Source: an uncultured Thermotogae bacterium
GTDB taxonomy: Bacteria > Bipolaricaulota > Bipolaricaulia > UBA7950 > UBA9294
NCBI GenBank assembly: GCA_964530075.1
Contig: CAZGXU010000005.1
Location: forward strand, 1-61,469
DNA: 61,469 nucleotides
Direction: 5' to 3'
The notes under the pieces are model-generated. The model saw nothing but the letters and a program-made list of their open reading frames with translations, was not told the DNA's origin and did not search any database. Shown in pieces: positions 16,833 through 51,461 of the stretch. Position 1 is the first letter of the stretch, and every line of letters starts with the position of its first letter. A program made the translations under genes and the position numbers.

Positions 16833-16833
16833 T

Positions 16834-17853: not shown

Positions 17854-18704
17854 TGCGGATCCGCACGGAAGGCGTCTCGTTCGCCTACGACGCCGCGACG
17901 CCCGCCCTGCGCGGCGTCGATCTCGAAGTGGACGACGGCCAGTCGCTAGCGCTGGTCGGGCCGAACGGCTCCGGCAAGAGCACACTCCTCAAGATCCTGT
18001 CCGGGGTCCTACGACCGGACGGCGGGGCGGTTCTCCTCGACGGCACGCCGCTCCGCGCGCTCTCTGCCAGGCAGATCGCGCGGCGTGTGGGGATGGTCGA
18101 GCAAGAGCGCTCGATGGGGTTCGATTTCACCGTCCGCGAAGTCGTGGCGATGGGGCGGATTCCTCACCGTGGGCGGTTCGCGAGAGAGTCGGCGGCCGAT
18201 CGATCCGCGATCGATCGCGCGATGGACCTCTCCGACGTTCTCAGGCTCGGCCAACGGTCGATCCGCGCCGTTTCGGGGGGCGAACGCCAGCGGGTCTATC
18301 TGGCCATGGCGCTCGCGCAGCGGCCCGACGTCCTCCTCCTCGACGAGCCGACGACCCACCTCGACTTGCGCCACCAAGTGCAGTTCATGGAGATCGTGCG
18401 CGAGCGCGCACGAGACGGGATCGCCGTGCTGATCGCGATTCACGACCTTACCCTCGCTGCGCAAGCGTCCGACCGGATCGCGCTCCTGCGAGAAGGTCAG
18501 ATCGTGGTAGCGGGGGCGCCCGATAAAGTGCTCACGCGATCGAACGTGCGCCGCGTGTTCGACGTCGAGGCACTCGTCGGCCGGCATCCGGAGCGGGGGA
18601 CGATCTATGTCCTCCCGACGCTCGTCCGTCGGCCGCAGCCCTCGAACGCAGCATCGCCGGAAACGGACGATCACCCCGGAGGAAGTGGAATCTGCCCAAC
18701 GTAG
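17853..18704 (+). CDS. ABC ATP-binding protein (BtuD/FepC-like)
   Basis: ATG overlaps the permease stop (TGATG). Walker A GPNGSGKST, signature SGGERQRV, Walker B LLLDEPTTHLD, H-loop IHDL. Confidence 0.9.
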   Translation: MRIRTEGVSFAYDAATPALRGVDLEVDDGQSLALVGPNGSGKSTLLKILSGVLRPDGGAVLLDGTPLRALSARQIARRVGMVEQERSMGFDFTVREVVAMGRIPHRGRFARESAADRSAIDRAMDLSDVLRLGQRSIRAVSGGERQRVYLAMALAQRPDVLLLDEPTTHLDLRHQVQFMEIVRERARDGIAVLIAIHDLTLAAQASDRIALLREGQIVVAGAPDKVLTRSNVRRVFDVEALVGRHPERGTIYVLPTLVRRPQPSNAASPETDDHPGGSGICPT

Positions 18705-20506
18705 AGGTCGGCGAACCGCTCGTCGGCCGACAGCTCGATGTACTCCACCGCCCGCGCGATCCGCACGGCGTCCTCGCGAAGGCCGCGGTCCAGCAGGGCG
18801 CGCCTCGCCCCGTGCCCGGCCGTGTTCCCGACGACGTGGACCCGCGATGGGTCGATCCTCGGCAGAAAGCCGGTCGAGACGAGGTGCTCGCCGGACAAGC
18901 CGACCGAGAACGCGCCGGCGATCAGCACGCGGTCGACTTCTCGCGGGTCCAGGGCCGCGTGCTGGAGAAGGATCTCGATCCCCGTCCGAACGGCCGCCTT
19001 GGCAAGCTGGAACTGGCGGACGTCCCCCTGATGAAGGTGCACCGGTTTCTCACCGTCCGTCAGTCGAAACCGCCGTTCCTTCCCCTCCCCTTCCAGCCGG
19101 CGCGACAGCGGCGATGCCACGTCGGAGAACCGTCCCGACGACTCGATGACCCCCGCCGCATGGAGCTCGGCGACCGCGGAGACGAGGCCGGTTCCGCAGA
19201 GTCCGGCCGGCGATGACCCGCCGATGACCGCGCACTCGATCCGGCCGTCCTGAACGCGGACGGACTCGATCGCCCCGTCGAGCGCCGCCATCCCCTGGAC
19301 GATCGACGCACCCTCGAACGCCGGCCCCGCCGCCGTCGAACAGGCGACCAGCCGACCTCCCTGGGCGAGAACGATCTCGCCGTTCGTCCCTACGTCGAGG
19401 AAGAGGGTGCACCCTTCGCTCCGCGAGAGATCCGTCGCCAGAATCCCCGCCACGATGTCCGCGCCGACATAGGCGGAGATCGCGGGAAGCGTTTCGACGA
19501 CCCCGCGCGGATGCATGCGCAGCCCCACGTCCTTCCCCCGGCACCGGACCGCCCCGCCGAAGACCGGAGCGTACGGACTGACGTCGATCCCCCGCGGATC
19601 GACGCCGAGAAACAGGTGAAGCATCGTCGGGTTACCCACGACCGTCGCCGCATAGATCGACTCGGCCGGGACCCCGCTGTCGGCGATCGACCGCTCGACC
19701 AGCCCATTCAGACCGTCAATCACCGCCGAGTGGAGCTCCGCGAGGCCCGGATCGCCCCGGCGCCGGACGTGCGCGATCCGCGCGATCACGTCGCCGCCGA
19801 ACCGACGCTGCGGGTTCCGCGACGCCACCGCGCCGATCTGCTTCCCCGCCGAGAGGTCGAGCAGGTATGCCGCCAGCGTGGTCGTGCCGACATCAAGCGC
19901 CAGGCCGTAGAGCCCGGTCGCGGATCCGGCTCGGATGTCCACGATCTCGCCCTGCCCCTCGGCGACCGAGACGATCGCAGCGACCCCCTGCGAGGCGATC
20001 CCCAGACGCCGCAGCGCCGAGAGCGGCACGCGCACCCCGACGCCGAGCGCTCCGCGCAGCCGGACGACCGCGGGGCGTGGATCCTCGCGCGATGGCGGAT
20101 CGAAGCGGACCTCGCGCGACGTCACCATCGGGGCGAACCTGCCCCCGAGAGCGGCCATGTCGGCCCGCGCTTTGTGGTCGAGTTCGCCGGCCGCGAGCCG
20201 AACCTCGATCGTCGTCGTCCCCGCCAGGAGATGAGCGCACGCGAGCCGCCATCCATCGGCGAGCTCCGACGCCTCGAGCTGCGCCCGATCCGCGGGCACC
20301 GGCCTCGGCGCGCCGTCGAGGAAGCGGATCCGACACTCGCCGCATGTCCCCTGCCCGCCGCAGGATCCCGGGATCCGGATCCCCTCCTCCTGCAAGGCGT
20401 CGAGGACCGTCTGGCCCGGCTGCCCTCGGATCACCCGCCCCTCGGGCATGAGCACGAGCTGGACCACGGCTTCCTGCGACCCGTCGTCGCTCCTTCTAGA
20501 TCCCAC
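18671..20506 (-). CDS. Corrinoid reductive activator (RACE / RamA- / AcsV-like): [2Fe-2S] ferredoxin fused to ASKHA ATPase (DUF4445)
   Basis: N-terminal plant-type ferredoxin motif CGGQGTCGECRI...ACH, then ASKHA phosphate-binding motifs (GLALDVGTTT, LFLDVGTNGEIVL, ...CGTGL). Alternative GTG start at 20467. The 3' end overlaps the convergent ABC ATPase by 34 nt. Confidence 0.85.
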   Translation of the reverse strand: MGSRRSDDGSQEAVVQLVLMPEGRVIRGQPGQTVLDALQEEGIRIPGSCGGQGTCGECRIRFLDGAPRPVPADRAQLEASELADGWRLACAHLLAGTTTIEVRLAAGELDHKARADMAALGGRFAPMVTSREVRFDPPSREDPRPAVVRLRGALGVGVRVPLSALRRLGIASQGVAAIVSVAEGQGEIVDIRAGSATGLYGLALDVGTTTLAAYLLDLSAGKQIGAVASRNPQRRFGGDVIARIAHVRRRGDPGLAELHSAVIDGLNGLVERSIADSGVPAESIYAATVVGNPTMLHLFLGVDPRGIDVSPYAPVFGGAVRCRGKDVGLRMHPRGVVETLPAISAYVGADIVAGILATDLSRSEGCTLFLDVGTNGEIVLAQGGRLVACSTAAGPAFEGASIVQGMAALDGAIESVRVQDGRIECAVIGGSSPAGLCGTGLVSAVAELHAAGVIESSGRFSDVASPLSRRLEGEGKERRFRLTDGEKPVHLHQGDVRQFQLAKAAVRTGIEILLQHAALDPREVDRVLIAGAFSVGLSGEHLVSTGFLPRIDPSRVHVVGNTAGHGARRALLDRGLREDAVRIARAVEYIELSADERFADLYVGQIPLPPG

Positions 20507-20546
20507 GATCCCCCCGCTTGCGCTTTCCCATCCGGCGTCTCGACGG

Positions 20547-21344
20547 CTAGCGGCGCTCGCGCGCTCGATGGTGCCGGATGTACTCCATGCAGTACTCGTC
20601 GTTGCCGAGGAGCGCCCGCGCCGCGCAGACCGTCTCCGCGATCCCCGGATCGGTCGGATCGAGGATCGCTCCCTCGAGTCCGGCCTCGAGCAGCATCGCG
20701 AGGAACACGCGGTTGAGCAGCCGCCGGTCCGGCAATCCGAACGAGACGTTGCTCACCGCAGCGAGCGGTTTGACCCCGAGCTCGTCCTTGACGCGGCGGA
20801 TCGCCCCGAGGACCTCCCGCCCCTGCTCCGGCGAGCTCGCGACCGACATGCAGATCAGATCGACATACAGCCGATCGCGCGTCACGCCCGCCGTCTCGCA
20901 CTTCTCGACGAGCGCCGCCGCCTCTCGGACCCGGTCGTCGGCCGACTTCGGCATTCCGGCCTCGCCCATCGCCAGGCCGATCACCTCGCATCCGCGCTCC
21001 GCCGCGATCTCGATCAGCGCCGCCTTCGAGGGCTCGTTGCTGATCGAGTTCATCAGCGGCGCCCCGGAGCACCGGCGGATCGCCTCGGCCATCACGTCCG
21101 GATCGGACGTGTCGATTCCCAACCGTACATCGGGGCCCGATTCGTCCTCCACCACGCCGATCAGCCAGACGAGGTCGTCCAGCTCGCGATCCATCGACTG
21201 TCCCGCGTTCAGGTCGATGACGTCCGCTCCCGCCTCGAGCTGCCTCCGCGCGAGCCCGCGGATGTGCGTTTCGTCTCGATCCGCGATCGCACGGCCGACC
21301 CGCTTCCGCGTGGAGTTGATCAACTCGCCCACAATCAAGAACAT
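20547..21344 (-). CDS. Pterin-binding methyltetrahydrofolate:corrinoid methyltransferase (MeTr/AcsE/MtvA-like)
   Basis: 265 aa. Starts FLIVGELINSTRK..., with VIDLNAG, GIDTSDP, PLMNSIS, VSNVSFGLP: the dihydropteroate-synthase-like pterin-binding barrel pattern of MetH/AcsE-type methyltransferases. Confidence 0.85.
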   Translation of the reverse strand: MFLIVGELINSTRKRVGRAIADRDETHIRGLARRQLEAGADVIDLNAGQSMDRELDDLVWLIGVVEDESGPDVRLGIDTSDPDVMAEAIRRCSGAPLMNSISNEPSKAALIEIAAERGCEVIGLAMGEAGMPKSADDRVREAAALVEKCETAGVTRDRLYVDLICMSVASSPEQGREVLGAIRRVKDELGVKPLAAVSNVSFGLPDRRLLNRVFLAMLLEAGLEGAILDPTDPGIAETVCAARALLGNDEYCMEYIRHHRARERR

Positions 21345-21413
21345 GCCCGTCCTCCCTCGGCGGATGATCCGCCAATCCTAGGTTCGGGCGCCCCTCGAGG
21401 CAAGGCTCGCGCC

Positions 21414-23231
21414 CTATTCGTAGTAGCCCTTGTGGTTGAGGGTCCGCGCCCACATCTCCATCCGCGGTCGAAGCAGCATGGCGATCGCGCGCGGTTCCCA
21501 GATCCCATCCGTCGTCAGCCCCTGGTAGATCGGGTACTCCTTCAACGTCTGGTAGACGTCGAGCAGCTTGTCGTCTCGAACCTTCATCAGCGCCCTGGCC
21601 CCTCCGCCCGCTTCGAGCGCCGCTTCCACGTCCTTCGCCGAGCGCGCGTACTCGTCGATCATCGCCAGGATCACGAGCCCATCTCGCACGCGCACCAGCT
21701 CCTCGCTCGGATCGTTTCCACACGCGCTCTCGAACGCGTCGCGCGCCGCAAGCAGGTCCCCGCGATCGCGCCGGTGCCAATACGATTCGATCCGCTCGAT
21801 CCCCTGGGCAACCGTCCGGCGATCCTCCGCGGTGGAGGTCAGATAGCCCGCAGCGGCGTCGACGAGCTGCTCCCGCGCGACGGCCGGATCCCACGCCATG
21901 CGCATGAATGCGAAGTCGGACAGGAACCGGCCCGGCGGCGCGAGCCGATACGAGCACACCCCGCTCGCAGGAAGCCTTCCGGTGTACTCGAACTCGTCGA
22001 TCGTGTGGTCGAGATACGGTTTGGGGAACAGGCTGAGTCGATCGAGCATCCCGAACTCCTTGTCCATGTAGAAGAAAAAGTTCCTCGACCGGAAGCCGCG
22101 TTTCGCGGCGACCTCGAGGATCTCGATCGAATCCGAACGTGTCAGGCGCGGCCCGAACTCCTGGTCCTTCGTCAACTGGTTCACGCTCAGATCCATGAAC
22201 ACGACATCGGACGGCATGCCCCGAAGCAGTTGATCTTGGATCTCGTCGACGTTCTCGATCGCCGTCGTCGGGGGGTAGATCCCCCGAAGCGCCCCGAAGA
22301 ACCCCGACAACCAGTTCCAGAAGACGACCTCTCCTTCGGGGTTCCGCTCCTTCAGGGCCCCGCCGATCTCGCGGACGGCGTCCAGCCAGACCGCCGCTGT
22401 ATCCGGCCTGCAGCGCTCACAAAGACACCACCCGAGCGGCTCCGTCACCATGATCTCGATCCCGTCGAGGCCCTCGAGGAAGTCGAGCGAGTACCGGTGG
22501 TACTTCATGATGACGTCCTTCGCCTTCGACCAACACAGGGCGAGCCCGAAGTAACCACGGAGGGCGTCCGTCCGCAGCTCCGGGTGATCCCAGAACACCT
22601 GCGTCGGCACGTGGTTGTACGCCGCCATGACGTTCACTTTCATGCCCTGTTCGTGTGCGTACGCGATCGCCTGCCGCTGCACCTCCAGTCGCCACTTCCC
22701 CTTGTGGGTGGAAGGCACTTCGGGGTGGTACGGAAAGAGGCCGAGGATCGACAGCCGATTGACATTGAACCCGCGAACGAAGTCGATGTACGTCTTCCAC
22801 TCGTCGAACGTCCACATGTCCGGCGTCATCTTCGTCATGCCCATCGCGTACGACGCCACCCCGACACGTCGATCGGGCCAGCGCGGCGTCGACACGGAGT
22901 CCCAGGTTGCAGAGAACGGAGCGCGGATCTGCTCCGTCCTGATCCGCATAAGCAGGCCGTAGATGCCGTTCGCGGCGCCCGCATCGGAGTTGGCGGCGAT
23001 CTCGATTCGAGCCGGCAAAGACGAGCGGATCGCGTACCCCTCGTCCCCCAGACCGGGGACCGGCGGCGTTTGCACGCCCGCCAGGATTTCCGCGTCGAGC
23101 GGGACGTCGCACCACGTCCGAAGCCCCGCCGAAAGCCGCGCCGCCGCATGATCTACCTGCGAGTGGAACCCGGACCCGACGCGGCCGGTCGTTCCTCCCG
23201 GCGCGATCCGAAGCACCCTTCGCTCAGTCAC
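21414..23231 (-). CDS. Hypothetical cytoplasmic glycoside-hydrolase-like protein (paralogue 1)
   Basis: N-terminal module GYAIRSS..ARIEIAANSDAGAANGIYGLL resembles the GH20b/GH67-N type domain preceding TIM barrels. The central region has alternating beta/alpha character. No signal peptide. Clearly paralogous to 42480..44372 along the full length. Start set at GTG 23231 after AGGAGGAGGG (ORF-track start 23300). Confidence 0.5.
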   Translation of the reverse strand: MTERRVLRIAPGGTTGRVGSGFHSQVDHAAARLSAGLRTWCDVPLDAEILAGVQTPPVPGLGDEGYAIRSSLPARIEIAANSDAGAANGIYGLLMRIRTEQIRAPFSATWDSVSTPRWPDRRVGVASYAMGMTKMTPDMWTFDEWKTYIDFVRGFNVNRLSILGLFPYHPEVPSTHKGKWRLEVQRQAIAYAHEQGMKVNVMAAYNHVPTQVFWDHPELRTDALRGYFGLALCWSKAKDVIMKYHRYSLDFLEGLDGIEIMVTEPLGWCLCERCRPDTAAVWLDAVREIGGALKERNPEGEVVFWNWLSGFFGALRGIYPPTTAIENVDEIQDQLLRGMPSDVVFMDLSVNQLTKDQEFGPRLTRSDSIEILEVAAKRGFRSRNFFFYMDKEFGMLDRLSLFPKPYLDHTIDEFEYTGRLPASGVCSYRLAPPGRFLSDFAFMRMAWDPAVAREQLVDAAAGYLTSTAEDRRTVAQGIERIESYWHRRDRGDLLAARDAFESACGNDPSEELVRVRDGLVILAMIDEYARSAKDVEAALEAGGGARALMKVRDDKLLDVYQTLKEYPIYQGLTTDGIWEPRAIAMLLRPRMEMWARTLNHKGYYE

Positions 23232-23433
23232 TTCCCTCCTCCTGTCCGTGACGCCATGGGACACGGGGAGAGGCTGGATCCTGGCTGAGTCAACCGACAC
23301 TGACAGCGTGGAGTCTACGGGAGAGCTCGGATCGGATCAACCGCGCCCCGGCCTTGCGACGCCGGATGCTCGATCCCATCTCGTTCGCAGGACGCCGCCC
23401 AGCCTCCCCTTGCCGCGAAGCGAGCCCGGTGGA

Positions 23434-23461
23434 TTGCTTGACGGAGGCCGCCGCGTATACT
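23434..23461 (+). promoter_or_regulatory. Candidate sigma70-type promoter for the first URO-D-family gene
   Basis: TTGCTT (23434-23439), 16-nt spacer, TATACT (23456-23461), in the 280-nt divergent intergenic region. By-eye match only. Confidence 0.3.
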
Positions 23462-23580
23462 GTGCGACGCCAGAGCATAGCCTTCCATGATCCACCTAGT
23501 CACTCCGCTCTGACCCGACAGGCGGCCAACGCACAATCGCCCGAAGTTGGCGGGGCGAGCACACGACGGCGCAGAGAGGA

Positions 23581-24708
23581 GTGATCGAGATGATGTTTGA
23601 ACCGAATCCGGATTTCGGGAGACTTCGCCGTACCCTACTGTGTCAGGAGCCGGACCGCGTTCCGACTGCCGAGCTGTACGTCGATCGCCCGGCGAAGGAA
23701 GGGTTCTTCGGAGAGCCGGTCGACAGTCTGTCGAAGAGTATCGAGTTCTATCGCGCGGCCGGATACGACTACTACGGGCTCCGGTTCAGCTACGCGGACG
23801 ACTTCCACGTTGGGGATTTCAGCAAGTCCGGCCGCGGCAACGCGACCTATACGAAGACCGCCTACGGAGACGAGGGAACGAGGAAGCGCCATTGGGTCAG
23901 AGGCAAAGACCACTACATCAGCACCCTGGTGGACTTCGAAGCGTTCGAGTGGCCGGTCGCGGAGACGGACAAGGTTGCCGGAGAGGCGGACATCGACGCC
24001 ATGCCCGCCGAGGAAGCGCTCGACATCGTCCGCGAGCACCTGCCGAAGGGGATGAAGGTGATCGCCTGGTGCTCGGGGATCTTCGAGTACGTGAGCTGGC
24101 TCATGGGCTTCGAGAAGTTCTGCGAGGCGCTGTACGACGATCGCGAGCTCATCGGGCGGATGTTCGAGCGGGTCGGCGGCCTGTTCGCCAGCCTGTTCGA
24201 GTACATGGCCTCGATCGACATCGTCGGGGCGCTCTGGTACGCGGACGACGTCGCCTACGCCCAGGGGCTCCTCTGGTCTCCGAACCTGATGCGCAGATAC
24301 CTGTTCCCCTGGTACGAGGAGCTCGGGTCCATCGCGCGCCGCAACGACCTGCCGCTGATCCTGCACTCGGACGGCGACCTGTCCAAGATCCTCGAGGACT
24401 ACATCGCGTTCGGGTGGAATGCGATTCAACCGGTCGAGCCGAAGGCGATGGACATCCGGGAGCTGAAGCGCCAGTACGGGAAGAAGCTCTGCTTCATCGG
24501 GAACGTCGACCTGAGCTACACGTTGACGCGTGGAACCCCCGCGGAGGTCGACGAAGAGGTGAGAGGCCTGATCCGCGACGTTGCGCCAGGCGGTGGGTTC
24601 TGCGTCGGATCGTCCAACACGATCACCGACTACGTGCCGGCGGAGAACTACCGCGCCCTGCTCGAAGCGACGTTCCGCTACGGCGAGTATCCGATCCGTC
24701 TGCCCTAG
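23581..24708 (+). CDS. URO-D/MT2-family methyltransferase paralogue 1 (lacks the His-x-Cys motif)
   Basis: 375 aa. URO-D family N-terminus (LLCQEPDRVPTAELY) and C-terminal barrel LILHSDGDLSKILEDYI...NAIQPVEP...LCFIGNVD...PGGGFCVGSSNTI. Where the other paralogues have H-[ST]-C-G-N, this one has H-S-D-G-D. Start could be ATG 23590/23593. Confidence 0.85.
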   Translation: MIEMMFEPNPDFGRLRRTLLCQEPDRVPTAELYVDRPAKEGFFGEPVDSLSKSIEFYRAAGYDYYGLRFSYADDFHVGDFSKSGRGNATYTKTAYGDEGTRKRHWVRGKDHYISTLVDFEAFEWPVAETDKVAGEADIDAMPAEEALDIVREHLPKGMKVIAWCSGIFEYVSWLMGFEKFCEALYDDRELIGRMFERVGGLFASLFEYMASIDIVGALWYADDVAYAQGLLWSPNLMRRYLFPWYEELGSIARRNDLPLILHSDGDLSKILEDYIAFGWNAIQPVEPKAMDIRELKRQYGKKLCFIGNVDLSYTLTRGTPAEVDEEVRGLIRDVAPGGGFCVGSSNTITDYVPAENYRALLEATFRYGEYPIRLP

Positions 24709-24820
24709 TCGGATGCGTTGCGGGCCTCGGCTGCGCACCGCAATCGCGTAGAGTCGAACGGGAGTACAGCCCGGCTCACCCTCCCTTTGCTTGACATCGG
24801 AGCGGAACTGTGGTAGCGTA

Positions 24821-24842
24821 TAAACGTTTACGTAAACGTTTA
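24821..24842. promoter_or_regulatory. Perfect 22-bp palindrome: candidate LacI-family operator
   Basis: TAAACGTTTACGTAAACGTTTA equals its own reverse complement. It contains two TAAACGTTTA sub-palindromes with central CG, as in LacI/GalR operators, and sits immediately 5' of the LacI-family gene. Confidence 0.55.
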
Positions 24843-24856
24843 ACCAGGAGGGGCTC

Positions 24857-25897: not shown

Positions 25898-26034
25898 AGG
25901 GAAGCAGCTTTCGGGCCTATGGAACGCCTCTCCGCTGGGTCCCGAACACGCTTCGAGGAGGTGGTAGGGGAGAGGATGACTGGGAGGATCTGAGGAGGCA
26001 CTGGCACCGACCTGGGATCTAAGGAGGCGTGAGG

Positions 26035-27978: not shown

Positions 27979-28064
27979 GATCGGGTTCTCAATCGCGTGA
28001 GGGCTTCCGCTCCGCGTGAGCGGGGGCCCTCGCATCCTCATCGCCGAGGCGGAGAAGGGAAGGC

Positions 28065-29048: not shown

Positions 29049-29061
29049 GAGCGAGGAAACG

Positions 29062-30177: not shown

Positions 30178-30212
30178 GCATGCTTCAGAAGGGATACGGA
30201 AAGGGTTGCACG

Positions 30213-31232: not shown

Positions 31233-31254
31233 ACGTGAGAAAGGCGGACGGATC

Positions 31255-39320: not shown

Positions 39321-39330
39321 GGGAGGCCAA

Positions 39331-42449: not shown

Positions 42450-42479
42450 GCCGAACCACCGGAGGAAAGGAGCCCACGA

Positions 42480-44372: not shown

Positions 44373-44405
44373 CGGGAGTGAAGAGGTGCGGAAAGGGAGC
44401 ATCGC

Positions 44406-45287
44406 ATGATCGAGAAGAAACGGTTCGGTCGAACGGAGCACGAGAGCACGCGGGTCATCTTCGGCGCAGCCGCCTTCTTCGACGCGACGCCCGCCGATGC
44501 CGACCGCATGCTCGACGTCCTCCTGGAGCACGGGATCAACCACATCGACACCGCCGCCGACTACGGGAAGTCGGAGAAGCTGCTCGGCCGCTGGATCGGC
44601 CGCCATCGGGCCGACTTCTTCCTCGCGACCAAGACCGCGGCACGCGACCGCGCCGGAGCCAAGGCGTCGATCGAGCGTTCCCTGGAGCGCATGCGCATTG
44701 ACCACGTCGACCTCTTCCAGCTCCACTGTCTGATCGAGCCCGATGGGTGGGAGCAGGCGATGGGACCCGACGGGGCACTCGAAGCGGCCGTCGAGGCGAA
44801 GGAGGCGGGGCTCACGCGGTTCCTCGGCGTGACGGCGCACGAGACGGTCGCGCCCGCGGTGCTGATGCGAAGCCTCGATCGCTTCGAATTCGACTCCGTC
44901 CTTCTCCCGTACAACTATCCGATGATGCAGAACGCCGAGTACGCGGCCGGCTTCGAGAAGCTGGCGTCGATGTGTGCGGAGCGGGACGTGCCGATGCAGA
45001 CGATCAAGGCGATCGCGCGACGCCTGCGCCGCGACGAGTCGAAGGCGTACAGCACGTGGTACGAACCGCTGCAATCCCAGGAGGACATCGACCCCGCCGT
45101 GCACTGGGTTCTTGCGCGGCCGGACGTCTTCCTCAACAGCGTCGGGGACGTGAACATCGCTCCGAGGATCTTCGACGCCGCCGAGCGATTCGACCGGACG
45201 AGTGCGCTCTCGGACGAGGAGATGCGCCGACTCGTGGCGGAGGCGGGCCTCGAGCCCCTCTTCCCCGTTCCGGAGAACACCCATTGA
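44406..45287 (+). CDS. Aldo/keto reductase
   Basis: 293 aa. INHIDTAADYGKSEKLLG, ...SLERMRIDHVDLFQLH..., ...RFLGVTAH... AKR family blocks. Confidence 0.85.
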   Translation: MIEKKRFGRTEHESTRVIFGAAAFFDATPADADRMLDVLLEHGINHIDTAADYGKSEKLLGRWIGRHRADFFLATKTAARDRAGAKASIERSLERMRIDHVDLFQLHCLIEPDGWEQAMGPDGALEAAVEAKEAGLTRFLGVTAHETVAPAVLMRSLDRFEFDSVLLPYNYPMMQNAEYAAGFEKLASMCAERDVPMQTIKAIARRLRRDESKAYSTWYEPLQSQEDIDPAVHWVLARPDVFLNSVGDVNIAPRIFDAAERFDRTSALSDEEMRRLVAEAGLEPLFPVPENTH

Positions 45288-46441
45288 TGAGAAAGGGCTT
45301 CATCGCGGCGGCACTCGCTCTTGCGATCGCGCTGCCGGTCCTGGGAGGGGACACCGTGAAACGAATCAACGACGACGGGTTCGGCAACCCGAACAACATC
45401 GGCATCGTCCACATGGAGGTACATGAAGGACGGCTGTACGCCGGGACGTGGAATCCGACCGATGGTTGCCTCGTCTACGCATCGGGCGACGGCGAGGCGT
45501 GGGAGCCGGTCAATGCGCCGGGGTTCGGCGACGTGGGGAATCAAGCGGTCGTGCGGATGCGGTCCGTCGGGGAGTACCTCTACGTCGGAACGTGGAACAA
45601 CCGAACCGGGGGGCAGCTTTGGCGAGCGAGGCAGCCGGGCGCGTCTTCAGACTGGGAACAGATTACGGGAGACGGGTTCGGGAACCCCGCGAATCTCACG
45701 CTCTGTTCGATCCGGCCGTTCGGCGAGTGGCTGTACGTCGGCCTGTTCAACCCGAGCCAAGGCGAAGAGGTCTGGCGCAGCCACGACGGGACCCGCGGTT
45801 CCTTCGTAAAATCGTTCGATAAAGGCCTGGGGATCACCGGAGCGACCGACGCGAGCGTGCTGTACGTGTGGAAGGACCACCTGTATCTCGGCACGGAGTC
45901 GGCCCAGCCGCCGTATCCCGGGTGCGACGTCTGGCGGACGGCCGGACCGGACGAATCCAGCGAGGAGACGTGGATCCGCGTCGGGCAATCGGGCTTCGGC
46001 GACACCAAGTCGTTCAACGCGTTCCGCATGATCGAGTTCCGCGGCGATCTCTACGTCGGGACGTGGGGCTTCGGCGTCTCGTCGTTCACGCCCCACCTCG
46101 GCCCGAAGGGGACGACCGTCTGGCGCACGAGCGGAGAGGGCAAAGGCCCCTTCACCGACTGGGAGCAGGTGAACGAGGACGGGTTCGGCAACGTCGGATA
46201 CGACTGCACGCTCGCGATGGAGGTCGTCGGCGGCACCCTCTACGTCGGTGGATTCGGCAATCACGGATTCCTGTTCGCTACGGAGGACGGCACCACGTGG
46301 CGAGAGATCACCGAGGACGGATTCCTGGAGACGTCCGAGTTCGGAATCCACGCGTTGGAAGAGCTGAACGGCGACCTCTACATCGGGATTCAGAACTGGA
46401 CCAAGCCAGCGGAGCTCTGGGTACTGCGAGGAGCGCAGTGA
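45287..46441 (+). CDS. Secreted repeat (beta-propeller-like) protein
   Basis: Signal peptide MRKGFIAAALALAIALPVLGG. About seven ~50-aa repeats of the form DGFGN(x)n...G.LYVGT.N...G.EVWR. ATG shares its first base with the last base of the upstream TGA. Confidence 0.6.
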   Translation: MRKGFIAAALALAIALPVLGGDTVKRINDDGFGNPNNIGIVHMEVHEGRLYAGTWNPTDGCLVYASGDGEAWEPVNAPGFGDVGNQAVVRMRSVGEYLYVGTWNNRTGGQLWRARQPGASSDWEQITGDGFGNPANLTLCSIRPFGEWLYVGLFNPSQGEEVWRSHDGTRGSFVKSFDKGLGITGATDASVLYVWKDHLYLGTESAQPPYPGCDVWRTAGPDESSEETWIRVGQSGFGDTKSFNAFRMIEFRGDLYVGTWGFGVSSFTPHLGPKGTTVWRTSGEGKGPFTDWEQVNEDGFGNVGYDCTLAMEVVGGTLYVGGFGNHGFLFATEDGTTWREITEDGFLETSEFGIHALEELNGDLYIGIQNWTKPAELWVLRGAQ

Positions 46442-47178
46442 CCGCGGATCGCCGAGGAGACACGAACGGAACACGCGCGGGGATCCTCGTCGACCGGTTC
46501 GATCTGGACGGGGTCGACATCGAGCTCGCCTCGGAATCGCTTTGGCCTGTGCTGGAACGCGGCGGTTTCTCGCGCTCCGACGCGGTAAGGACCCGGGTCG
46601 ATGAGCTGCTGCCGCTCGGCGCATCCCTTCTCCGTCCCCGAGCCATGGGACGGTTGTACGATGTGGGTGCGGCCGCGGAGCCGGAGCGAGCGACGCTGCC
46701 CGATCCGATCCGCGAAGCGGAGTTCCTCTGCTTCGGCCTCTGCACCGCCGGGCGGGCGATCGACGACCGCGCACGGGCGCTCTGCGAGGAAGGGGAGCTA
46801 ATCGACTCGATGATCCTCGACGCGATCGCGATGACCGGCCTCTCGCTCATCGGCGATCGACTCGGTCGAACGATCTTCGGCTGGGCCGAGGAGCGCGACC
46901 TGTCCGCGAGTCGCGCGTTCTCGCCGGGCGCTGGCGCGAGCCACTGGGGCTTGGAGCACCAGCGCTTCCTGTTCGACCACCTACCGGAGAGGCCGCTCGA
47001 CGTGGAGCTGACCGACCGGTTCCTGATGAAGCCGTCGAAGAGCGTGTCGTTCGTCATCGGGATTGGCGAACGGATCAACCGGGCGAAGAACCCGTTTTCG
47101 TGCGAGGGGTGCGATCGGTTCGATTGCGCCTATCGCCACATTCCGGAAAGCGAAACGGTCTGTCCGGAAACCGGTTAG
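46438..47178 (+). CDS. Stand-alone methionine-synthase activation-domain-like protein (Met_synt_B12-like)
   Basis: About 246 aa from GTG 46438. ...MILDAIAMTGLSLIGDRL..., RAFSPGAGASHWGLEHQRFLFDHLPERPLDVELTDRFLMKPSKSVSFVIGIG resembles the MetH reactivation (AdoMet-binding) module. C-terminal CEGCDRFDCAYRH Cys motif. Confidence 0.6.
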   Translation: MTADRRGDTNGTRAGILVDRFDLDGVDIELASESLWPVLERGGFSRSDAVRTRVDELLPLGASLLRPRAMGRLYDVGAAAEPERATLPDPIREAEFLCFGLCTAGRAIDDRARALCEEGELIDSMILDAIAMTGLSLIGDRLGRTIFGWAEERDLSASRAFSPGAGASHWGLEHQRFLFDHLPERPLDVELTDRFLMKPSKSVSFVIGIGERINRAKNPFSCEGCDRFDCAYRHIPESETVCPETG

Positions 47179-47204
47179 GCGGGCTCTTCGCAGGAGGAGA
47201 GGAC

Positions 47205-48311
47205 ATGAACGAAGCACACGAGGCGGTGTATCGTCGACTGGCCGAGCACCTCGATACGTTGCCGGACGGGTATCCTCCGAGCACGAGCGGCGCCGAACTG
47301 CGCGTGCTGGAACGGCTGTTCACGCCCGAGGAGGCCGAGCTGGCCGTCCATCTGACCCTCGATCGGGAGACGGCGCAGACCATCGGCGCTCGTGCGGGCC
47401 TCTCCGTCGAAGAGGCCGCACCGCGGCTTGACGGGATGGCGAGGAAGGGGCTGATCCTCTCGGTCGAACGGGAAGGTGAGCCCACGCTGTACCAGGCCGT
47501 TCCGTTCGTCGTGGGGATCTTCGAGTTTCAGGTCAACGACCTCACGCCCGAATTCCTGGGCGATCTCGTGGAGTACGCGGAGACACGCGGCGAGTTTCCA
47601 AAGGTGAAGAGCATTCCCCAGCTCCGCACGGTCCCCGTCGGGGTCAGCCTCGCGTCGCACACCGAGGCGCTTCCGTACGAGCGGGTGGAGGAGCTCGTCC
47701 ACACGCACGATCGATTCGCCGTCGCCCCGTGCCTGTGTCGTACGATCGCCGGCATGGCCGGAACCGCCTGCGACGCGCCGGTCGAGACGTGCCTCTTCTT
47801 CGGCGACTGGGCCGACTTCTACGTGAACACCGGTCGCGGCCGGAGGATCGAGCGAGAAGAGGTTTTCCGCCTTCTCGAGCAGGCCAACGAGGCGAACCTC
47901 GTCCTGCAGTCGAGCAACTCGAAGGAGACATCCGTGATCTGCTGCTGCTGCGGTTGCTGCTGCGGCGTGCTGACACCGCTCAAGGCGCTGGAGAATCCGG
48001 CAGACGAGGTCGCCAGTGCGTTCACCGCGGCGTACGACGAATCCGCTTGTGTCGGTTGCCACAAGTGCCTGACCAGGTGCCAGATGGACGCGATCTCACG
48101 CGACGGGGATCGGATCGCTCTGGCCCGCAACCGCTGCATCGGATGCGGACTGTGCGTCGCGACCTGTCCGAGCGGGGCGCTGCGACTCGTTCGCCGCGAG
48201 GGGGCCGACGACGCACCGCCGCCCGACGACGTCAACGCGATGTGGAAGGTCATGCGCAAGGCGCAGGTGGGTGGAAGCCACGACGGAGACGATCTCCCGA
48301 TTGGAGGTTGA
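47205..48311 (+). CDS. Poly-cysteine / 2x[4Fe-4S] ferredoxin-domain protein with N-terminal wHTH-like domain
   Basis: 368 aa after AGGAGGAGAGG. Run CCCCGCCC (47940-47963), then CVGCHKCLTRC and CIGCGLCVATCP ferredoxin motifs. Confidence 0.75.
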   Translation: MNEAHEAVYRRLAEHLDTLPDGYPPSTSGAELRVLERLFTPEEAELAVHLTLDRETAQTIGARAGLSVEEAAPRLDGMARKGLILSVEREGEPTLYQAVPFVVGIFEFQVNDLTPEFLGDLVEYAETRGEFPKVKSIPQLRTVPVGVSLASHTEALPYERVEELVHTHDRFAVAPCLCRTIAGMAGTACDAPVETCLFFGDWADFYVNTGRGRRIEREEVFRLLEQANEANLVLQSSNSKETSVICCCCGCCCGVLTPLKALENPADEVASAFTAAYDESACVGCHKCLTRCQMDAISRDGDRIALARNRCIGCGLCVATCPSGALRLVRREGADDAPPPDDVNAMWKVMRKAQVGGSHDGDDLPIGG

Positions 48312-48387
48312 ACGAGCCGATGTCCGTCATCGCCGATCCGACGACCAGCAAGGTCGGCCCCCCTCCGTATCGCGCTCGGGAGCCCGT

Positions 48388-49179
48388 ATGAAGCCGAGGA
48401 TCGAAACGGCGAAGGACTACGACGACCTCAGCGCGCGAGCCGCTCGTTTTCTGTGCGATTTCATCCGATCGACTCCTCGCGCTGTGATCGCGTTGCCGAC
48501 CGGCCGGACTCCCGTCGAAGCGTATCGGCAGACGGTCGAGCGACTTCGCGCCAATTCGTCGGATTGCTCGAGGCTGTTCCTCGTCGACATCGATGAGATT
48601 GCCGGCCTTCCTCCGGATCATCCCGCAAGCTGCGCTCAGACGCTGCGCCGGCAGCTCCTCGATCGGCATCCGGTCTCGATGGCCTCCTGTCGCCTACTCG
48701 ACGGTGCGGCGGACGACCTGACCGCGGAGGCCGCGTGTCACGAGAAGGCGATCCGGGACCGTGGAGGCCTCGATCTGGCGGTCCTCGGCATCGGCGTGAA
48801 CGGCCACATCGCGCTCAACGAACCCGGCACGCCCTTCGACTCAGGAGCCCACGTGTCCCCGCTCACGAGCTCGACGATCGAGAGGCTCCCGCTGCCCGGC
48901 GGATCCGACGGGATGACACCGACGCTCGGCTTGACGTTGGGAATCGGAACCATCCTTCGAGCACGGAGGATCCTGCTGCTTGCGAGCGGCGACGACAAAG
49001 CCGACGTCCTCAACGCTGCGCTGAACGGCGACGTGACCGAGCGGATCCCTGCTACCGCGCTCCAGATGCACCCGGGGCTTCACGTCATCGCCGACGAGCC
49101 GGCCTTGACCCTGTGGAGGCCTCAGCAGGAACGGGCAGGATCACGAAAGCGGAGGGGAAGATGCCTGCGAGGTCCTTGA
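48388..49179 (+). CDS. Glucosamine-6-phosphate deaminase/isomerase family protein (NagB-like)
   Basis: IALPTGRTP, ...DLAVLGIGVNGHIALNEPG..., ...ILLLASGDDKA... blocks of the NagB/6-phosphogluconolactonase family. The 3' end overlaps the next gene by 19 nt. Confidence 0.8.
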   Translation: MKPRIETAKDYDDLSARAARFLCDFIRSTPRAVIALPTGRTPVEAYRQTVERLRANSSDCSRLFLVDIDEIAGLPPDHPASCAQTLRRQLLDRHPVSMASCRLLDGAADDLTAEAACHEKAIRDRGGLDLAVLGIGVNGHIALNEPGTPFDSGAHVSPLTSSTIERLPLPGGSDGMTPTLGLTLGIGTILRARRILLLASGDDKADVLNAALNGDVTERIPATALQMHPGLHVIADEPALTLWRPQQERAGSRKRRGRCLRGP

Positions 49180-50432
49180 AGGTCTGCGTGATCGGGGGCG
49201 GAAGCACCTACACGCCGGAGCTGATCGACGGCCTCATCGATCTGGGTCGCTCGCTTCCCATCGAGGAAGTGGCGTTGATGGACGTCGATGCGGGAAGGCT
49301 CGAAACGCTCGGCGCACTGGCCCGGAGGATGGTGGCCGCCGCCCATCGTGAGATTGCGGTCCGGACGACGTGCGATCGACTGGACGCGCTTCGCGATGCC
49401 GACTACGTGGTGACGCAGATCCGCGTCGGTGGGACGAAGGCCCGGATCCAGGACGAGCGGATCCCCCTCAGGCACGGGGTCATCGGCCAGGAAACCACCG
49501 GTCCCGGCGGCTTCGCCAACGCCCTGCGAACCATTCCCGTGATGCTCGACATCGCGGCGGACACGGCCCGGGTTGCCCCGAGGGCCCGTCTCATCAACTT
49601 CACCAATCCGTCCGGCAGCGTCACCGAAGCGCTGGCCAAACACTCGGAGGTCGAGCCTATCGGACTGTGCAACGGCCCCATCGGAGCTCGACGGGCCATC
49701 GCAGAGCTGCTGGACGCGGATCCCGAGCGGATCTTCATGGACTGGGTCGGGCTCAACCACTTGAGTTGGGTCCGCGGCGTCACGCTGGACGGGCGGGAGA
49801 TCATCGGTGACGTCATCGAGCGGGCGATCTCCAGTGGGCTCGTTTCTCAGTTTTCGCCGGCCTTGCTGAGAGGGCTTGAGATGCTGCCGAGCTACTACCT
49901 CGACTACTACTACAACACGAACCGCGTCCTTTCCGAACAGCGAGCCGCCGAGCGGACCCGCGGCGAGGAGGTGCTCGAGATGGAACGGCGGCTCCTCGAC
50001 AGCTACGCGGATCCTGCACTCGCCACCAAGCCGGCGGAACTGGGGAAGCGTGGTGGGGCCTACTACTCCACGGCCGCCGTGTCCCTCATCCGTGCGCTCG
50101 AAGGTGAGGACGGCATCCACATCGTGAACGTGCCCAACCGCGGGGCCATGGCGGAGCTTCCCGGAAACGTCGCGGTGGAGGTTCCGTGCTCCATCGAGAG
50201 CGGCACGGTGCGGCCTTTGCCCTGTTCGCCTCTTCCTGCGACGATTCGCGGGCTCGTGCAGTCCGTGAAGTCGTACGAGGAGCTGACCATCCAGGCGAGT
50301 GTGGAGGGCGACGAGGACGCCGCCGTTCTGGCGCTCCTTGCCCACCCGCTCGTCCCCGGCTTCGATGTCGCCGAGAAGATCTGGGAGGACATCAAGAGGA
50401 TCCATGCGCGATACTTGCCGCAGTTCGTGTGA
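49161..50432 (+). CDS. Glycoside hydrolase family 4 (6-phospho-beta-glucosidase, CelF/ChbF-like)
   Basis: 423 aa. NAD-binding N-terminus KVCVIGGGSTYTPELIDGL, ...QIRVGG...DE..P...G.IGQETTGPGG..., INFTNPSG, CNGP, GLNHLSW: canonical GH4 blocks. Confidence 0.85.
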   Translation: MPARSLKVCVIGGGSTYTPELIDGLIDLGRSLPIEEVALMDVDAGRLETLGALARRMVAAAHREIAVRTTCDRLDALRDADYVVTQIRVGGTKARIQDERIPLRHGVIGQETTGPGGFANALRTIPVMLDIAADTARVAPRARLINFTNPSGSVTEALAKHSEVEPIGLCNGPIGARRAIAELLDADPERIFMDWVGLNHLSWVRGVTLDGREIIGDVIERAISSGLVSQFSPALLRGLEMLPSYYLDYYYNTNRVLSEQRAAERTRGEEVLEMERRLLDSYADPALATKPAELGKRGGAYYSTAAVSLIRALEGEDGIHIVNVPNRGAMAELPGNVAVEVPCSIESGTVRPLPCSPLPATIRGLVQSVKSYEELTIQASVEGDEDAAVLALLAHPLVPGFDVAEKIWEDIKRIHARYLPQFV

Positions 50433-50456
50433 GAGCGGCGAACGGAGAAAGCGCTC

Positions 50457-51461
50457 GTGGAGCATGTGCTCGGCGTAGACGGAGGCAATTCCAAGACGTT
50501 CGCGTTGATCGTCGACGTCGAGGGACACGCGCTCGGCTTCGCGCGAGCCGAGGGCAGCAACCACGAGCGAATCGGCTTTGCCGAAGCCGAGCTCGTTCTC
50601 GAGCGGGTCGCGCGCGAGGGCCTTGCGCAAGCGGGAATCGACGCACCCGCCGACTTCGGATTCTGGGGTCTCGCCGGAGCGGACGTACCTTCCGACTTCG
50701 AGGCGCTGGACGCCATCGTCGCGCGAATCGGCGCCGCGAGGAAGAACACGGTGAAGAACGATCTGGCCGCCGCCATGGGTGCAGGACTGTCGCGAGGGTG
50801 GGGCGTCGGAATCGTCTTCGGGGCCGGGTTCAGCGCCGGAGGACTCGCGCCGGACGGCCGCGAGATCAAGTTGCCCTCCATGGGGGCCACGACCGGGGAT
50901 TGGGGCGGCGCAGGCGTCCTGGCCATAGAGGTGCTTCGGCTGGCTCACCGCAGCTACGACCGCCGCGGCGACAGGTCGCTGCTCGAGAAGCGGGTGCCCG
51001 CCGTCTTGGGGATCTCCTCGTTCGAAGAGCTCCCCGCGAGACTCCGCGACGAAACCATCGATTGGGAAGCCGCCTTCGCCGAACTGCCGCCACTGCTGTT
51101 CGAGGTGGCCGCTGCCGGAGACGGGGTCGCTCGCGGCCTGGTCGCCCGTGTCGGAGAGGAAGTCGGCACGACCACAGCCGCGCTGATCGAGCGGCTGGGA
51201 TTGCGAGAGACGGACGTCGAAGTGGTGCTCGGCGGCTCCGTCTTCCGCGGTGAGGGATCGCTTCTTCTCGAAACGGTGCGGACGGCGATCAGGCCGTTCG
51301 CACCGCGGGCGCGCATCGTCCTCCCCGAGTTCCACCCCGTCGTGGGCGCTGCCTTCCAGGCAATGCGGGAACTCGGAATCGATGTGGACGATCGAATCCG
51401 AAGGAACATGCGAGCCAGCCTCCCTGCCGAGCTGCTGGAACCGAGAGCGGAGCGTGGGTAG
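50457..51461 (+). CDS. BadF/BadG/BcrA/BcrD-type ATPase (N-acetylglucosamine-kinase-like)
   Basis: 334 aa (GTG start). VLGVDGGNSKTFALI, ...GLAGAD..., ...GDWGGAG..., ...VVLGGSVF... ASKHA sugar-kinase pattern. Confidence 0.8.
   Translation: MEHVLGVDGGNSKTFALIVDVEGHALGFARAEGSNHERIGFAEAELVLERVAREGLAQAGIDAPADFGFWGLAGADVPSDFEALDAIVARIGAARKNTVKNDLAAAMGAGLSRGWGVGIVFGAGFSAGGLAPDGREIKLPSMGATTGDWGGAGVLAIEVLRLAHRSYDRRGDRSLLEKRVPAVLGISSFEELPARLRDETIDWEAAFAELPPLLFEVAAAGDGVARGLVARVGEEVGTTTAALIERLGLRETDVEVVLGGSVFRGEGSLLLETVRTAIRPFAPRARIVLPEFHPVVGAAFQAMRELGIDVDDRIRRNMRASLPAELLEPRAERG

Follow-up and report, generated by a model that had tools for sequence, protein, structure and literature searches.

The stretch of DNA analysed here (hereafter the window) comprises 61,469 nucleotides of contig CAZGXU010000005.1 (assembly GCA_964530075.1), from an uncultured bacterium of the Bipolaricaulota. 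It carries a locus in which the genes of a corrinoid methyl-transfer system, namely a B12-binding corrinoid protein, six proteins of the URO-D family (UROD1 to UROD6), a pterin-binding methyltransferase and a reductive activator, are found together with a sugar operon headed by a LacI-family repressor. Since the G+C content of the window is high (62-70%), raw lists of open reading frames were noisy, and genes were therefore called by third-position G+C; the called genes were then compared with Pfam, NCBIfam and the sequences of the PDB. The closest named homologues belong to Candidatus Bipolaricaulota.

A corrinoid methyl-transfer module within a carbohydrate locus

Between positions 26029 and 51461, 21 genes lie on the + strand, separated by gaps of at most 86 nt or overlapping by 1-19 nt, and many of them are preceded by GGAGG ribosome-binding sites. 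The count given by a first-pass annotation of the same DNA, 22 genes and gaps no longer than 77 nt, was essentially right. The corrinoid genes are interleaved with those of the LacI-controlled sugar operon (a substrate-binding protein (SBP), permeases, a glycoside hydrolase (GH) of family GH172, an isomerase, a kinase, an aldo/keto reductase (AKR) and a GH4 enzyme). The stop codon of UROD3 overlaps the start of the corrinoid-protein gene by 4 nt, and UROD4 begins 21 nt past the end of the same gene. The corrinoid module is a genuine part of the carbohydrate locus.

The corrinoid protein, the predicted methyl carrier (32463-33095, +), contains the domains B12-binding_2 and B12-binding (Pfam, 79 and 97 bits) with the His-on motif GDLHDIG (DxHxxG), and is MtgC-like according to NCBIfam (234 bits). 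Among solved structures it is closest to the Moorella protein 1y80 (206 bits); MttC and the corrinoid protein of the Desulfitobacterium hafniense O-demethylase (4jgi, 134 bits) come next. The pterin-binding methyl-corrinoid:tetrahydrofolate (THF) methyltransferase (hereafter MT-II; 20547-21344, -; Pterin_bind, 93 bits) is closest to the D. hafniense O-demethylase MT-II (4o0q, 143 bits), about equalled by MeTr/AcsE (2yci/2e7f, 138 bits), and scores 253.9 bits with PRK07535, for which the cut-off is 259. The RACo-type ATP-dependent reductive activator of corrinoid proteins (18671-20506, -), with its [2Fe-2S] and ASKHA parts, is full-length and has 4/4 domains (Fer2, RACo_linker, Raco_middle and RACo_C_ter); it reaches 374 bits with the NCBIfam AcsV model, below the 800-bit equivalog cut-off. 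The parts list of an O-demethylase-type system is thus present, with a DxHxxG corrinoid protein, a pterin-binding MT-II, a RACo and an adjacent UroD-superfamily gene. Relatives of the corrinoid protein, sampled in 78 loci anchored on them, usually occur in a module with a pterin methyltransferase and RACo, the former being present in 32 and the latter in 26 of these loci.

Upstream of these genes, on the + strand, lies a BtuFCD-like importer of the ATP-binding cassette (ABC) type, made of a binding protein (15963-16832; Peripla_BP_2, 82 bits), a permease (16834-17853; FecCD, 322 bits) and an ATPase (17853-18704; ABC_tran, 115 bits). Its orthologues (56-73% identity) adjoin corrinoid-protein genes in two other loci (L103 and L197), and in L197 the importer again adjoins the cluster, on its other side. 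A search for cobalamin riboswitches, ahead of the importer and in the rest of the window, gave none, so that the importer's specificity for B12 is presumed only.

All these components, as well as the six URO-D proteins, had been named in the first-pass annotation and were recovered in the Pfam, NCBIfam and PDB searches. Overlooked in that inventory were a Met_synt_B12-like gene, an Fe-S protein, the downstream MetF/MetV and NiFe hydrogenase genes, and the division of the URO-D proteins into two kinds.

The arrangement is kept, at 60-95% amino-acid identity, in two related GTDB genomes (L001 and L002), in a Logan contig (L013) and in two metagenome contigs (L197 and L200). The conserved order is UROD1, LacI, SBP, two permeases, UROD2, UROD3, corrinoid protein and UROD4-6, continued in L001, L002 and L013 by GH172, a FucI-like isomerase, an FGGY kinase, a 510-residue protein, a GH-like protein and the AKR. 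L013 has one URO-D paralogue fewer, and there the AKR and a DUF3795 gene precede the 510-residue protein. A group of metagenome contigs (L195-L201) extends the synteny through a repeat protein, the Met_synt_B12-like protein and the Fe-S protein. An assembly chimera, or a linkage unique to this contig, had been envisaged beforehand; because the arrangement recurs in at least three related genomes and in several metagenome contigs, both were rejected. In L002, the FGGY kinase aligns over 43 residues only (16350-17101) and UROD5 is found in two tblastn pieces (11270-12596), which may reflect gene decay or assembly frameshifts.

Outside the Bipolaricaulota, the association was found again on the contig JAIQFN010000007 of a metagenome-assembled genome (MAG) of the Terriglobia (L177/L185), which encodes two GH-like proteins, two unknown proteins of 713-714 residues, a sugar transporter, GH172 (43% identity to that of the window), a UROD2-like URO-D protein (32%), a corrinoid protein (49%) and RACo (41%). 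The association of this set of hydrolases with corrinoid methyl transfer has therefore arisen, or been kept, in two phyla. On the other strand of the same contig (locus positions 4674-7728, -) are an MtaB-family protein, DUF1638 and a homocysteine S-methyltransferase domain, a set that resembles a split methionine synthase of a soil acidobacterium, supplied with methyl groups from methanol or methoxy compounds. The methyl acceptor of the Terriglobia locus is, judging from this gene content, likely to be homocysteine rather than THF, which would also point to demethylation of a substrate. Within a sample of 36 loci of at least 8 kb from other lineages, anchored on the GH-like proteins, URO-D genes were present in 10 and GH172 in 17, and a corrinoid protein with RACo in 2, both of which are this Terriglobia contig.

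The six URO-D paralogues

The six paralogues are all on the + strand and all match PF01208, at 47-83 bits. They are UROD1 (23581-24708; 72.6 bits, and 54.7 bits with MtaA_Meth), UROD2 (30213-31232; 83 bits), UROD3 (31255-32466; 50 bits), which is translationally coupled to the corrinoid protein, and UROD4 (33117-34346), UROD5 (34386-35615) and UROD6 (35656-36762), the last three at 47-61 bits. The NCBIfam top matches of the six are the MtaA, CmuA and methylcobalamin:coenzyme M families (20-55 bits, for cut-offs of 235-600), while hemE (TIGR01464) is matched by UROD2 alone, at no more than 16.6 bits for a cut-off of 303. Since hemE is marginal and the MtaA/CmuA families score better, a HemE identity was rejected, and the grouping with HemE against which the first-pass annotation had cautioned is not seen.

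Compared with solved structures, a profile of the six paralogues scores 38 bits with MtaA (4ay7), 27 bits with HemE and 25 bits with CdmB, the URO-D motif 'LHSCGN' being aligned to the Zn-binding 'LHICGN' of MtaA. The H-x-C motif is retained in five of the six, UROD1 having H-S-D in its place. The third Zn cysteine of MtaA is replaced by His in the UROD2 type, by Asn in UROD1, by Asp in UROD3 and by Asn in UROD4-6, where Cys331 offers an alternative (H-x-C + Cys331 in all three). With this cysteine replaced and the scores below cut-off, the proteins fall outside the MtaA/MtbA (MT2) family. An AlphaFold2 (AF2) model of UROD6 (pLDDT 90) matched UroD and MtaA about equally, so that the fold cannot separate the two. 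By sequence comparison, made for MT-I with CdmB, the candidate substrate:corrinoid methyltransferases (MT-I) are not demonstrable members of any characterised MT-I, MT2 or HemE family.

The paralogues are of two kinds, UROD1-3 on one side and UROD4-6 (hereafter the UROD6 clade) on the other. UROD1-3 resemble URO-D genes that adjoin corrinoid proteins elsewhere: 12 of the 78 corrinoid-protein-relative loci have a URO-D neighbour, and in a neighbour-joining tree all 12 lie outside the UROD6 clade and group with UROD1-3. UROD2 and the corrinoid-linked URO-D proteins of other phyla have in common an 'NPVQP' motif and His343, at the position of the third Zn cysteine of MtaA, versus C331/N343/'HSFxD' in the UROD6 clade, in which His259, Cys261 and Cys331 are invariant.

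The six paralogues were too divergent for a joint-alignment scan of related loci. A homology search returned 3817 database proteins at E <= 1e-10, a set that may include other URO-D clades, and a clade-specific scan gave more than 558 genome hits for the UROD6 clade. Its hosts are Hydrogenedentota, Omnitrophota, Armatimonadota, Planctomycetota, Anaerolineae, Latescibacterota and others, and include Candidatus Fervidibacter sacchari PD1 (complete chromosome record), presumably a cultured aerobe. Within 10 kb on either side of UROD6-clade genes in the other lineages sampled, a corrinoid protein, RACo or pterin methyltransferase was found in 0 of 79 loci; the neighbours are sugar transporters of the major facilitator superfamily or ABC type, GH38, an MGH1-like GH, GH172, AKR and GH-like genes. 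In a Latescibacterota locus (L046) and in Chloroflexi HGW-1 (L018), 6-8 URO-D paralogues are found per 20 kb, with no corrinoid protein nearby.

Because the corrinoid-linked URO-D genes of other organisms group with UROD1-3 and not with the UROD6 clade, the corrinoid protein is likely to have UROD2 and UROD3 as its partners, and less surely UROD1. UROD4-6 may be B12-dependent enzymes as well, UROD4 being placed just past the corrinoid-protein gene. The first-pass annotation had listed six candidate substrate:corrinoid methyltransferases; the six URO-D genes stand, and to take all six as MT-I was an over-reading in view of the 0/79 count for the clade of UROD4-6.

Sugar uptake, hydrolysis and accessory genes

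The LacI-family repressor (24857-25897, +) matches Peripla_BP_1/3/4, and its helix-turn-helix can be read in the sequence. Its apparent start codon is ATC (24857), replaced by ATA in L001 (~1684) and by ATG at the same position in L013 (~404), so the start codon may be non-canonical. Upstream of the gene (24793-24843, +), a promoter of the form TTGACA ... TATAAA is overlapped by a palindromic, tandem LacI-type operator, TAAACGTTTAC GTAAACGTTTA, in which an exact 10-mer occurs twice against 0.03 expected by chance; the operator is kept upstream of lacI in L001, L002 and L013. No further LacI operator was found across the window, including the divergent promoter of UROD1 and the first GH-like gene.

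Uptake is represented by the family-5 SBP (26029-27978, +; SBP_bac_5, 201 bits) and two ABC permeases (28065-29048 and 29062-30177, +; BPD_transp_1, OppC_N). In the PDB the SBP matches 5ipw (334 bits), a Thermotoga-type 'oligopeptide' binder that is itself uncharacterised, then SPH1118 (262 bits), which binds pectin oligosaccharides, and AgpA (81 bits), which binds alpha-galactosides; this places it, as far as sequence similarity tells, in the carbohydrate branch of family 5. OppD/F-type ATPase genes are found nowhere in the locus, and the ATPases for this transporter must therefore come from elsewhere in the genome.

The GH172 enzyme (36782-37858, +; DUF2961 (PF11175), 300 bits) matches 4kq7 (284 bits), alphaFFase1 7v1v (266 bits), the D. 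gadei structure 8ah3 (257 bits) and the exo-alpha-D-arabinofuranosidase 8ic8 (168 bits); the known activities of the family are those of alpha-D-fructofuranosidases/difructose dianhydride enzymes and exo-alpha-D-arabinofuranosidases. It is followed on the + strand by a FucI/D-arabinose-isomerase-like isomerase (37896-39320; Fucose_iso_N1/N2/C; 76 bits with the D-arabinose isomerase 3a9r) and by an FGGY kinase (39331-40920; FGGY_N/C). Taken together, a furanosidase, an aldose-ketose isomerase and an FGGY kinase would be a consistent set of enzymes for catabolising a pentose or deoxyhexose once it is set free. The next gene encodes a 510-residue protein (40917-42449, +) that is kept in L001, L002, L013 and L195-L201 and has no significant match in Pfam, NCBIfam or the PDB (AraA_central at chance level, E 0.26), so no family was assigned to it. 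Of the two FucI-like isomerases announced by the first-pass annotation, the gene at 37896-39320 stands; this second one is unsupported, its resemblance to the first being collinear though weak (BLASTP E 0.16, hhalign probability 2.6%).

Two GH-like paralogues, 34% identical to each other (E 3e-97), were also borne out. The first (21414-23300, -), whose start codon is uncertain, has no Pfam, NCBIfam or PDB sequence match. The second (42480-44372, +) is predicted to be cytoplasmic, having no signal peptide; it matches no catalytic-domain family of Pfam or NCBIfam and no PDB sequence, and shows a weak similarity to the GH20b/GH67N N-domain alone (E 3e-4 and 0.015). Its AF2 model (pLDDT 89, pTM 0.91) consists of an N-terminal zincin-like domain, a TIM barrel and a helical domain, and was matched by Foldseek to GH20, GH138, GH67, GH84 and GH115 at TM 0.47-0.58 and 10-14% identity. 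All 112 database homologues are unnamed. According to the model, the pair represents an undescribed family with a GH20/67/84/115/138-like architecture, to none of which it belongs by sequence. Since neither the second GH-like protein nor GH172 has a signal peptide, oligosaccharides are probably cleaved in the cytoplasm, after uptake. In another metagenome locus (L176; ENA ERZ27256499 k141_4001872, 10001-21929), six tandem GH-like paralogues lie directly downstream of a TonB-dependent receptor gene.

The AKR (44406-45287, +; Aldo_ket_red, 92 bits) also accompanies URO-D, GH172 and GH-like genes in L202, L180 and L177. At the end of the operon, on the + strand, are a NagB/6-phosphogluconolactonase-like protein (48388-49179; Glucosamine_iso, 76 bits), GH4 (49161-50432; Glyco_hydro_4 and 4C) and a BadF/GlcNAc-kinase-like ATPase (50457-51461; BcrAD_BadFG). 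This module is present in L198 and absent in the syntenic L179, and is therefore regarded as peripheral. The sugar genes of the first-pass annotation (LacI, SBP and two permeases, GH172, FGGY kinase, AKR, NagB-like, GH4 and BadF-type kinase) were all recovered.

Between the AKR and the NagB-like gene are three further genes of the + strand. The first encodes a secreted or lipoprotein-like protein (45287-46441), kept within the operon in all relatives, which has a signal-peptide-like N-terminus and no family match. It contains about seven propeller-like 'GDGFGN...LYVGTWN' repeats, and from these it may be a surface glycan-binding propeller. The second encodes a protein of 246 residues with a C-terminal Cys motif (46438-47178), similar to the methionine-synthase activation domain Met_synt_B12 (PF02965, weak, E 0.2) and unmatched in the PDB sequence search. 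A 42%-identical homologue (PF02965, E 0.0096) lies between the corrinoid-protein and MttB genes of a Bipolaricaulota-like genome (L108), for which reason the protein is regarded as an accessory of the corrinoid system. A frameshifted GH-like paralogue at 45287-47178 was considered and rejected, these being two separate genes. The third (47205-48311) encodes an Fe-S protein with a winged-helix-like N-terminus, an CCCCGCCCG motif and a 2x[4Fe-4S] ferredoxin domain (Fer4 families); the run that precedes the ferredoxin domain is unusual. Its family counts more than 3900 proteins, loosely annotated as 'RnfB' or ferredoxin; homologues adjoin URO-D genes in L090, L202 and L203 and stand alone elsewhere, and the neighbourhoods of the family are generic and uninformative on function. 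By its domain content the protein is a possible electron donor.

Directly downstream of the sugar operon, and convergent with it (51536-55948, -), are MetF, the methylene-THF reductase (~51536-52400; MTHFR, 134 bits), MetV (52399-53094; DUF5981, 103 bits), an HycI protease and the large and small subunits of a NiFe hydrogenase (HycI; NiFeSe_Hases, 518 bits; NiFe_hyd_SSU_C). By gene content this region looks like a methylene-THF reductase/hydrogenase unit typical of acetogen-like one-carbon (C1) metabolism, and it is a plausible sink for the methyl-THF produced. Elsewhere in the window are a B12-binding radical SAM protein (31-1506, -; B12-binding, Radical_SAM and DUF4070), a second and unrelated cobalamin user, and a cyclic-nucleotide-binding domain fused to a D-2-hydroxyacid dehydrogenase (12026-13483, +).

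Candidate pathway, alternatives and significance

A functional link between the corrinoid module and the sugar genes is probable, as argued by the synteny, by the recurrence in Terriglobia and by the branch of the SBP; this much of the anaerobic methyl-glycan demethylation proposed in the first-pass annotation has held. That the methyl donor is the O-methyl group of a sugar is an idea drawn from the context of the genes, and one for which our confidence is limited. The explanation that we favour, tentatively, is a corrinoid-dependent demethylation of methyl-ether sugars onto THF, within a LacI-repressed oligosaccharide operon of an anaerobic bacterium of the Bipolaricaulota (Acetothermia); the direction of methyl flow and the choice of the URO-D paralogues that use the corrinoid protein are both inferred.

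In the proposed pathway, a methylated oligosaccharide would be captured by the family-5 SBP, enter through the two permeases and be cleaved in the cytoplasm by GH172, the two GH20/67/115-like family members and GH4. One or more URO-D enzymes with an MtaA-like metal motif (H-x-C + His or Cys), most likely UROD2 and UROD3 and possibly UROD4-6, would activate the methyl ether of the sugar by a Lewis acid, and the methyl group would pass by SN2 attack to the Co(I) of the corrinoid protein, in a manner likened to the Zn activation of methanol in MtaB. The pterin-binding methyltransferase would move the methyl group on to THF, and methyl-THF would enter C1 metabolism via the adjacent MetFV/hydrogenase genes, or acetyl-CoA synthesis. 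RACo would re-reduce accidentally oxidised Co(II), perhaps assisted by the Met_synt_B12-like and Fe-S proteins, and the BtuFCD-like system would supply the corrinoid. The demethylated sugar would be isomerised by the FucI-like enzyme, phosphorylated by the FGGY kinase and, where needed, reduced by the AKR.

Several points weigh against this scheme. On the chemical side, the chief reservation is that the aliphatic ether of a sugar leaves less readily than a phenolate; we know of no biochemical precedent, methanol excepted, for the cleavage of an aliphatic methyl ether by Co(I). A partial precedent exists, since the Zn of MtaB activates methanol for attack by Co(I) and some aryl O-demethylase MT-I of the UroD superfamily contain Zn. 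The scores of the URO-D proteins with characterised methyltransferases are far under the family cut-offs, the third Zn cysteine of MtaA is not conserved in them, and CdmB, the only solved MT-I, is matched weakly (25 bits with the profile, 15 bits with UROD2). The locus contains no gene known to be specific for methyl sugars, and the sequence names no methylated sugar. RACo and the pterin methyltransferase are on the opposite strand, without a LacI operator. Sugar genes (GH172 or GH-like) were found in none of the 78 loci of corrinoid-protein relatives, of which the only Pfam-annotated neighbourhood (L108) pairs the corrinoid protein with MttB-type methyltransferases, and to this is added the lack of corrinoid genes in the 79 UROD6-clade neighbourhoods.

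The last point bears on a different reading, in which only UROD2 and UROD3 (perhaps UROD1) would be corrinoid-dependent, UROD4-6 would form a separate and widespread family of Zn-dependent TIM-barrel enzymes acting on sugars otherwise, or by methyl transfer without a dedicated corrinoid protein, and the B12 module would be a lineage-specific addition to an older URO-D/GH172/GH-like glycan locus. It agrees with the wide distribution of the UROD6 clade (more than 558 species-level genomes, from many phyla), next to sugar transporters and hydrolases instead of corrinoid genes, with a metagenome locus (L202) that over 12 kb encodes no corrinoid protein, but five URO-D proteins, a GH-like protein, GH172, an AKR and an Fe-S protein, and with the distinct motifs and tree position of the corrinoid-linked URO-D genes of other phyla. 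It is nevertheless judged unlikely, as UROD4-6 are retained behind the corrinoid-protein gene in all relatives, with UROD4 at 21 nt from it; as the genomes with UROD6-clade genes may encode a corrinoid protein elsewhere, one Armatimonadia MAG having both on different contigs (L051 and L134); and as the clade keeps the MtaA-like H-x-C, its top family matches being methylcobalamin methyltransferases.

The donors might instead be aromatic, namely the methoxylated aglycones of plant glycosides derived from lignin or flavonoids; the sugar genes would then handle the glycone only, and the URO-D proteins would be ordinary aryl O-demethylase MT-I. The characterised O-demethylase MT-I (MtvB, OdmB, VdmB, MtoB) belong to the UroD superfamily, some of them with Zn, and all act on phenyl methyl ethers (PMC13222342); moreover, the MT-II of the locus is most similar to that of the D. 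hafniense O-demethylase, and its corrinoid protein resembles 4jgi. Aromatic donors are nonetheless improbable, because the partners conserved across phyla are GH172 (an alpha-D-furanosidase family) and a GH20/67/115-like enzyme rather than GH1/GH3 beta-glucosidases, no genes of aromatic-ring metabolism are present in the locus, the URO-D proteins bear very little similarity to CdmB, the one relative of the aryl O-demethylases with a solved structure, and the UROD6 clade occurs in purely glycan contexts across many saccharolytic phyla. S-methyl or N-methyl sugars (5-methylthio-pentoses or N-methyl amino sugars), demethylated through a thiol/Zn chemistry as in MtaA/MtsA-type enzymes, are very improbable donors. 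The closest solved relative, MtaA, is a Zn enzyme acting on a thiol with its H-x-C kept here, the NagB-like and GlcNAc-kinase-like genes hint at amino sugars, and GH172 includes D-arabinofuranosidases of actinobacterial cell-wall glycans, which carry methylthio-xylose caps; yet the NagB/GH4/BadF module is missing in one syntenic relative, hence is not core, and no sulfur-handling genes are present in the locus. A reverse flow, by which methyl-THF would methylate a sugar or glycan via the corrinoid protein and the URO-D enzymes for biosynthesis or modification, is most improbable: corrinoid methyl transfers are reversible in vitro, as reported for shuttle catalysis with D. hafniense MT-I, and the adjacent MetFV could supply methyl-THF, but a LacI repressor, an uptake transporter, hydrolases, an isomerase and a kinase speak of a catabolic setting, glycosyltransferases and export genes are absent, and known sugar O-methylation uses S-adenosylmethionine.

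Sugar O-methyl groups being retained as the favoured donors, the locus can be compared with known systems. MtvABC of Moorella, Odm/Vdm of Acetobacterium, Dhaf4610-4612 of Desulfitobacterium and MtoABCD of archaea have the same parts list (UroD MT-I, DxHxxG corrinoid protein, pterin MT-II and RACo-type activase), and the MT-II and corrinoid protein of the locus score well with the Desulfitobacterium and Moorella structures. The substrates of those systems are phenyl methyl ethers, and their genes have C1 or aromatic surroundings, whereas the present locus is a LacI-controlled glycan operon with GH172 and a putative new GH family, and its URO-D proteins (six genes, two clades) are only remotely related to the characterised MT-I (15-55 bits). 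CdmABC, the chloromethane dehalogenase/methyltransferase of Acetobacterium dehalogenans (PMC13222342; PDB 9rui), illustrates that a UroD MT-I can be diversified to non-aromatic donors while the framework of corrinoid protein, MT-II and activase is kept; CdmB is metal-free with hydrophobic channels for haloalkanes, whereas the URO-D proteins of the locus keep an MtaA-like H-x-C and match it weakly. In MtaABC, the methanol:coenzyme M methyltransferase, MtaA (4ay7) is the best solved sequence match and its Zn-binding H-x-C aligns with the URO-D proteins, but it transfers methyl groups from the corrinoid to coenzyme M and its third Zn cysteine is not shared; MtaB has no counterpart in the window and one in the Terriglobia locus. 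Coenzyme M is not known to occur in these bacteria.

The loci of known GH172 enzymes (7v1v, 8ah3 and 8ic8, acting on difructose dianhydride or D-arabinan) are also comparable, the GH172 protein of the window reaching 168-284 bits with GH172 structures, and the pairing of a FucI/D-arabinose-isomerase-like enzyme with an FGGY kinase would suit the catabolism of a pentose or ketose once freed. No described GH172 locus with URO-D or corrinoid genes is known to us. The only described route of methyl-sugar demethylation, as the first-pass annotation had stated, and the sole carbohydrate demethylase retrieved in the literature, is the O2-dependent P450 acting on 6-O-methyl-D-galactose in marine porphyran degraders (PMC6292453). 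It is likewise embedded in a polysaccharide utilisation locus; it consists of unrelated proteins and releases the methyl group as formaldehyde, whereas in the proposed pathway the reaction would be anoxic and the methyl group conserved as methyl-THF. In a non-exhaustive search of the full-text literature, no report was found of sugar demethylation that depends on a corrinoid or B12, of GH172 loci with B12 genes, of corrinoid demethylation in Bipolaricaulota or of a Fervidibacter URO-D. The 'mlp' gene clusters described by Kountz and Balskus were considered as well, and a link was rejected, as that paper mentions no sugar context.

The locus represents an enzymatic framework that is known, placed in a metabolic setting that is new, and probably acting on a new class of substrate. 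Whether the URO-D paralogues, with the UROD6 clade of more than 550 genomes, form a new carbohydrate-active class of corrinoid-dependent sugar O-demethylases is doubtful; if this were true of the whole clade, the removal of glycan methyl ethers by Co(I) would be widespread among glycan degraders, and the methyl groups of polysaccharides would be routed directly into THF-bound C1 metabolism, acetogenesis or methionine synthesis. Methyl-ether sugars, such as 4-O-methyl-glucuronate, 2-O-methyl-fucose and -xylose, 3-O- and 6-O-methyl-hexoses and the methylated sugars of algal and bacterial exopolysaccharides, block normal sugar catabolism. The locus offers a concrete set of soluble proteins amenable to testing. 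If correct, the proposed pathway would explain how anaerobes handle such sugars, extend the substrates of the B12 methyltransferases by one class, establish one or more new GH families and provide a role for the very large clade of 'URO-D family proteins', and it would reveal an unrecognised flow of polysaccharide-derived methyl groups into the acetogenic C1 metabolism of sediments and the subsurface.

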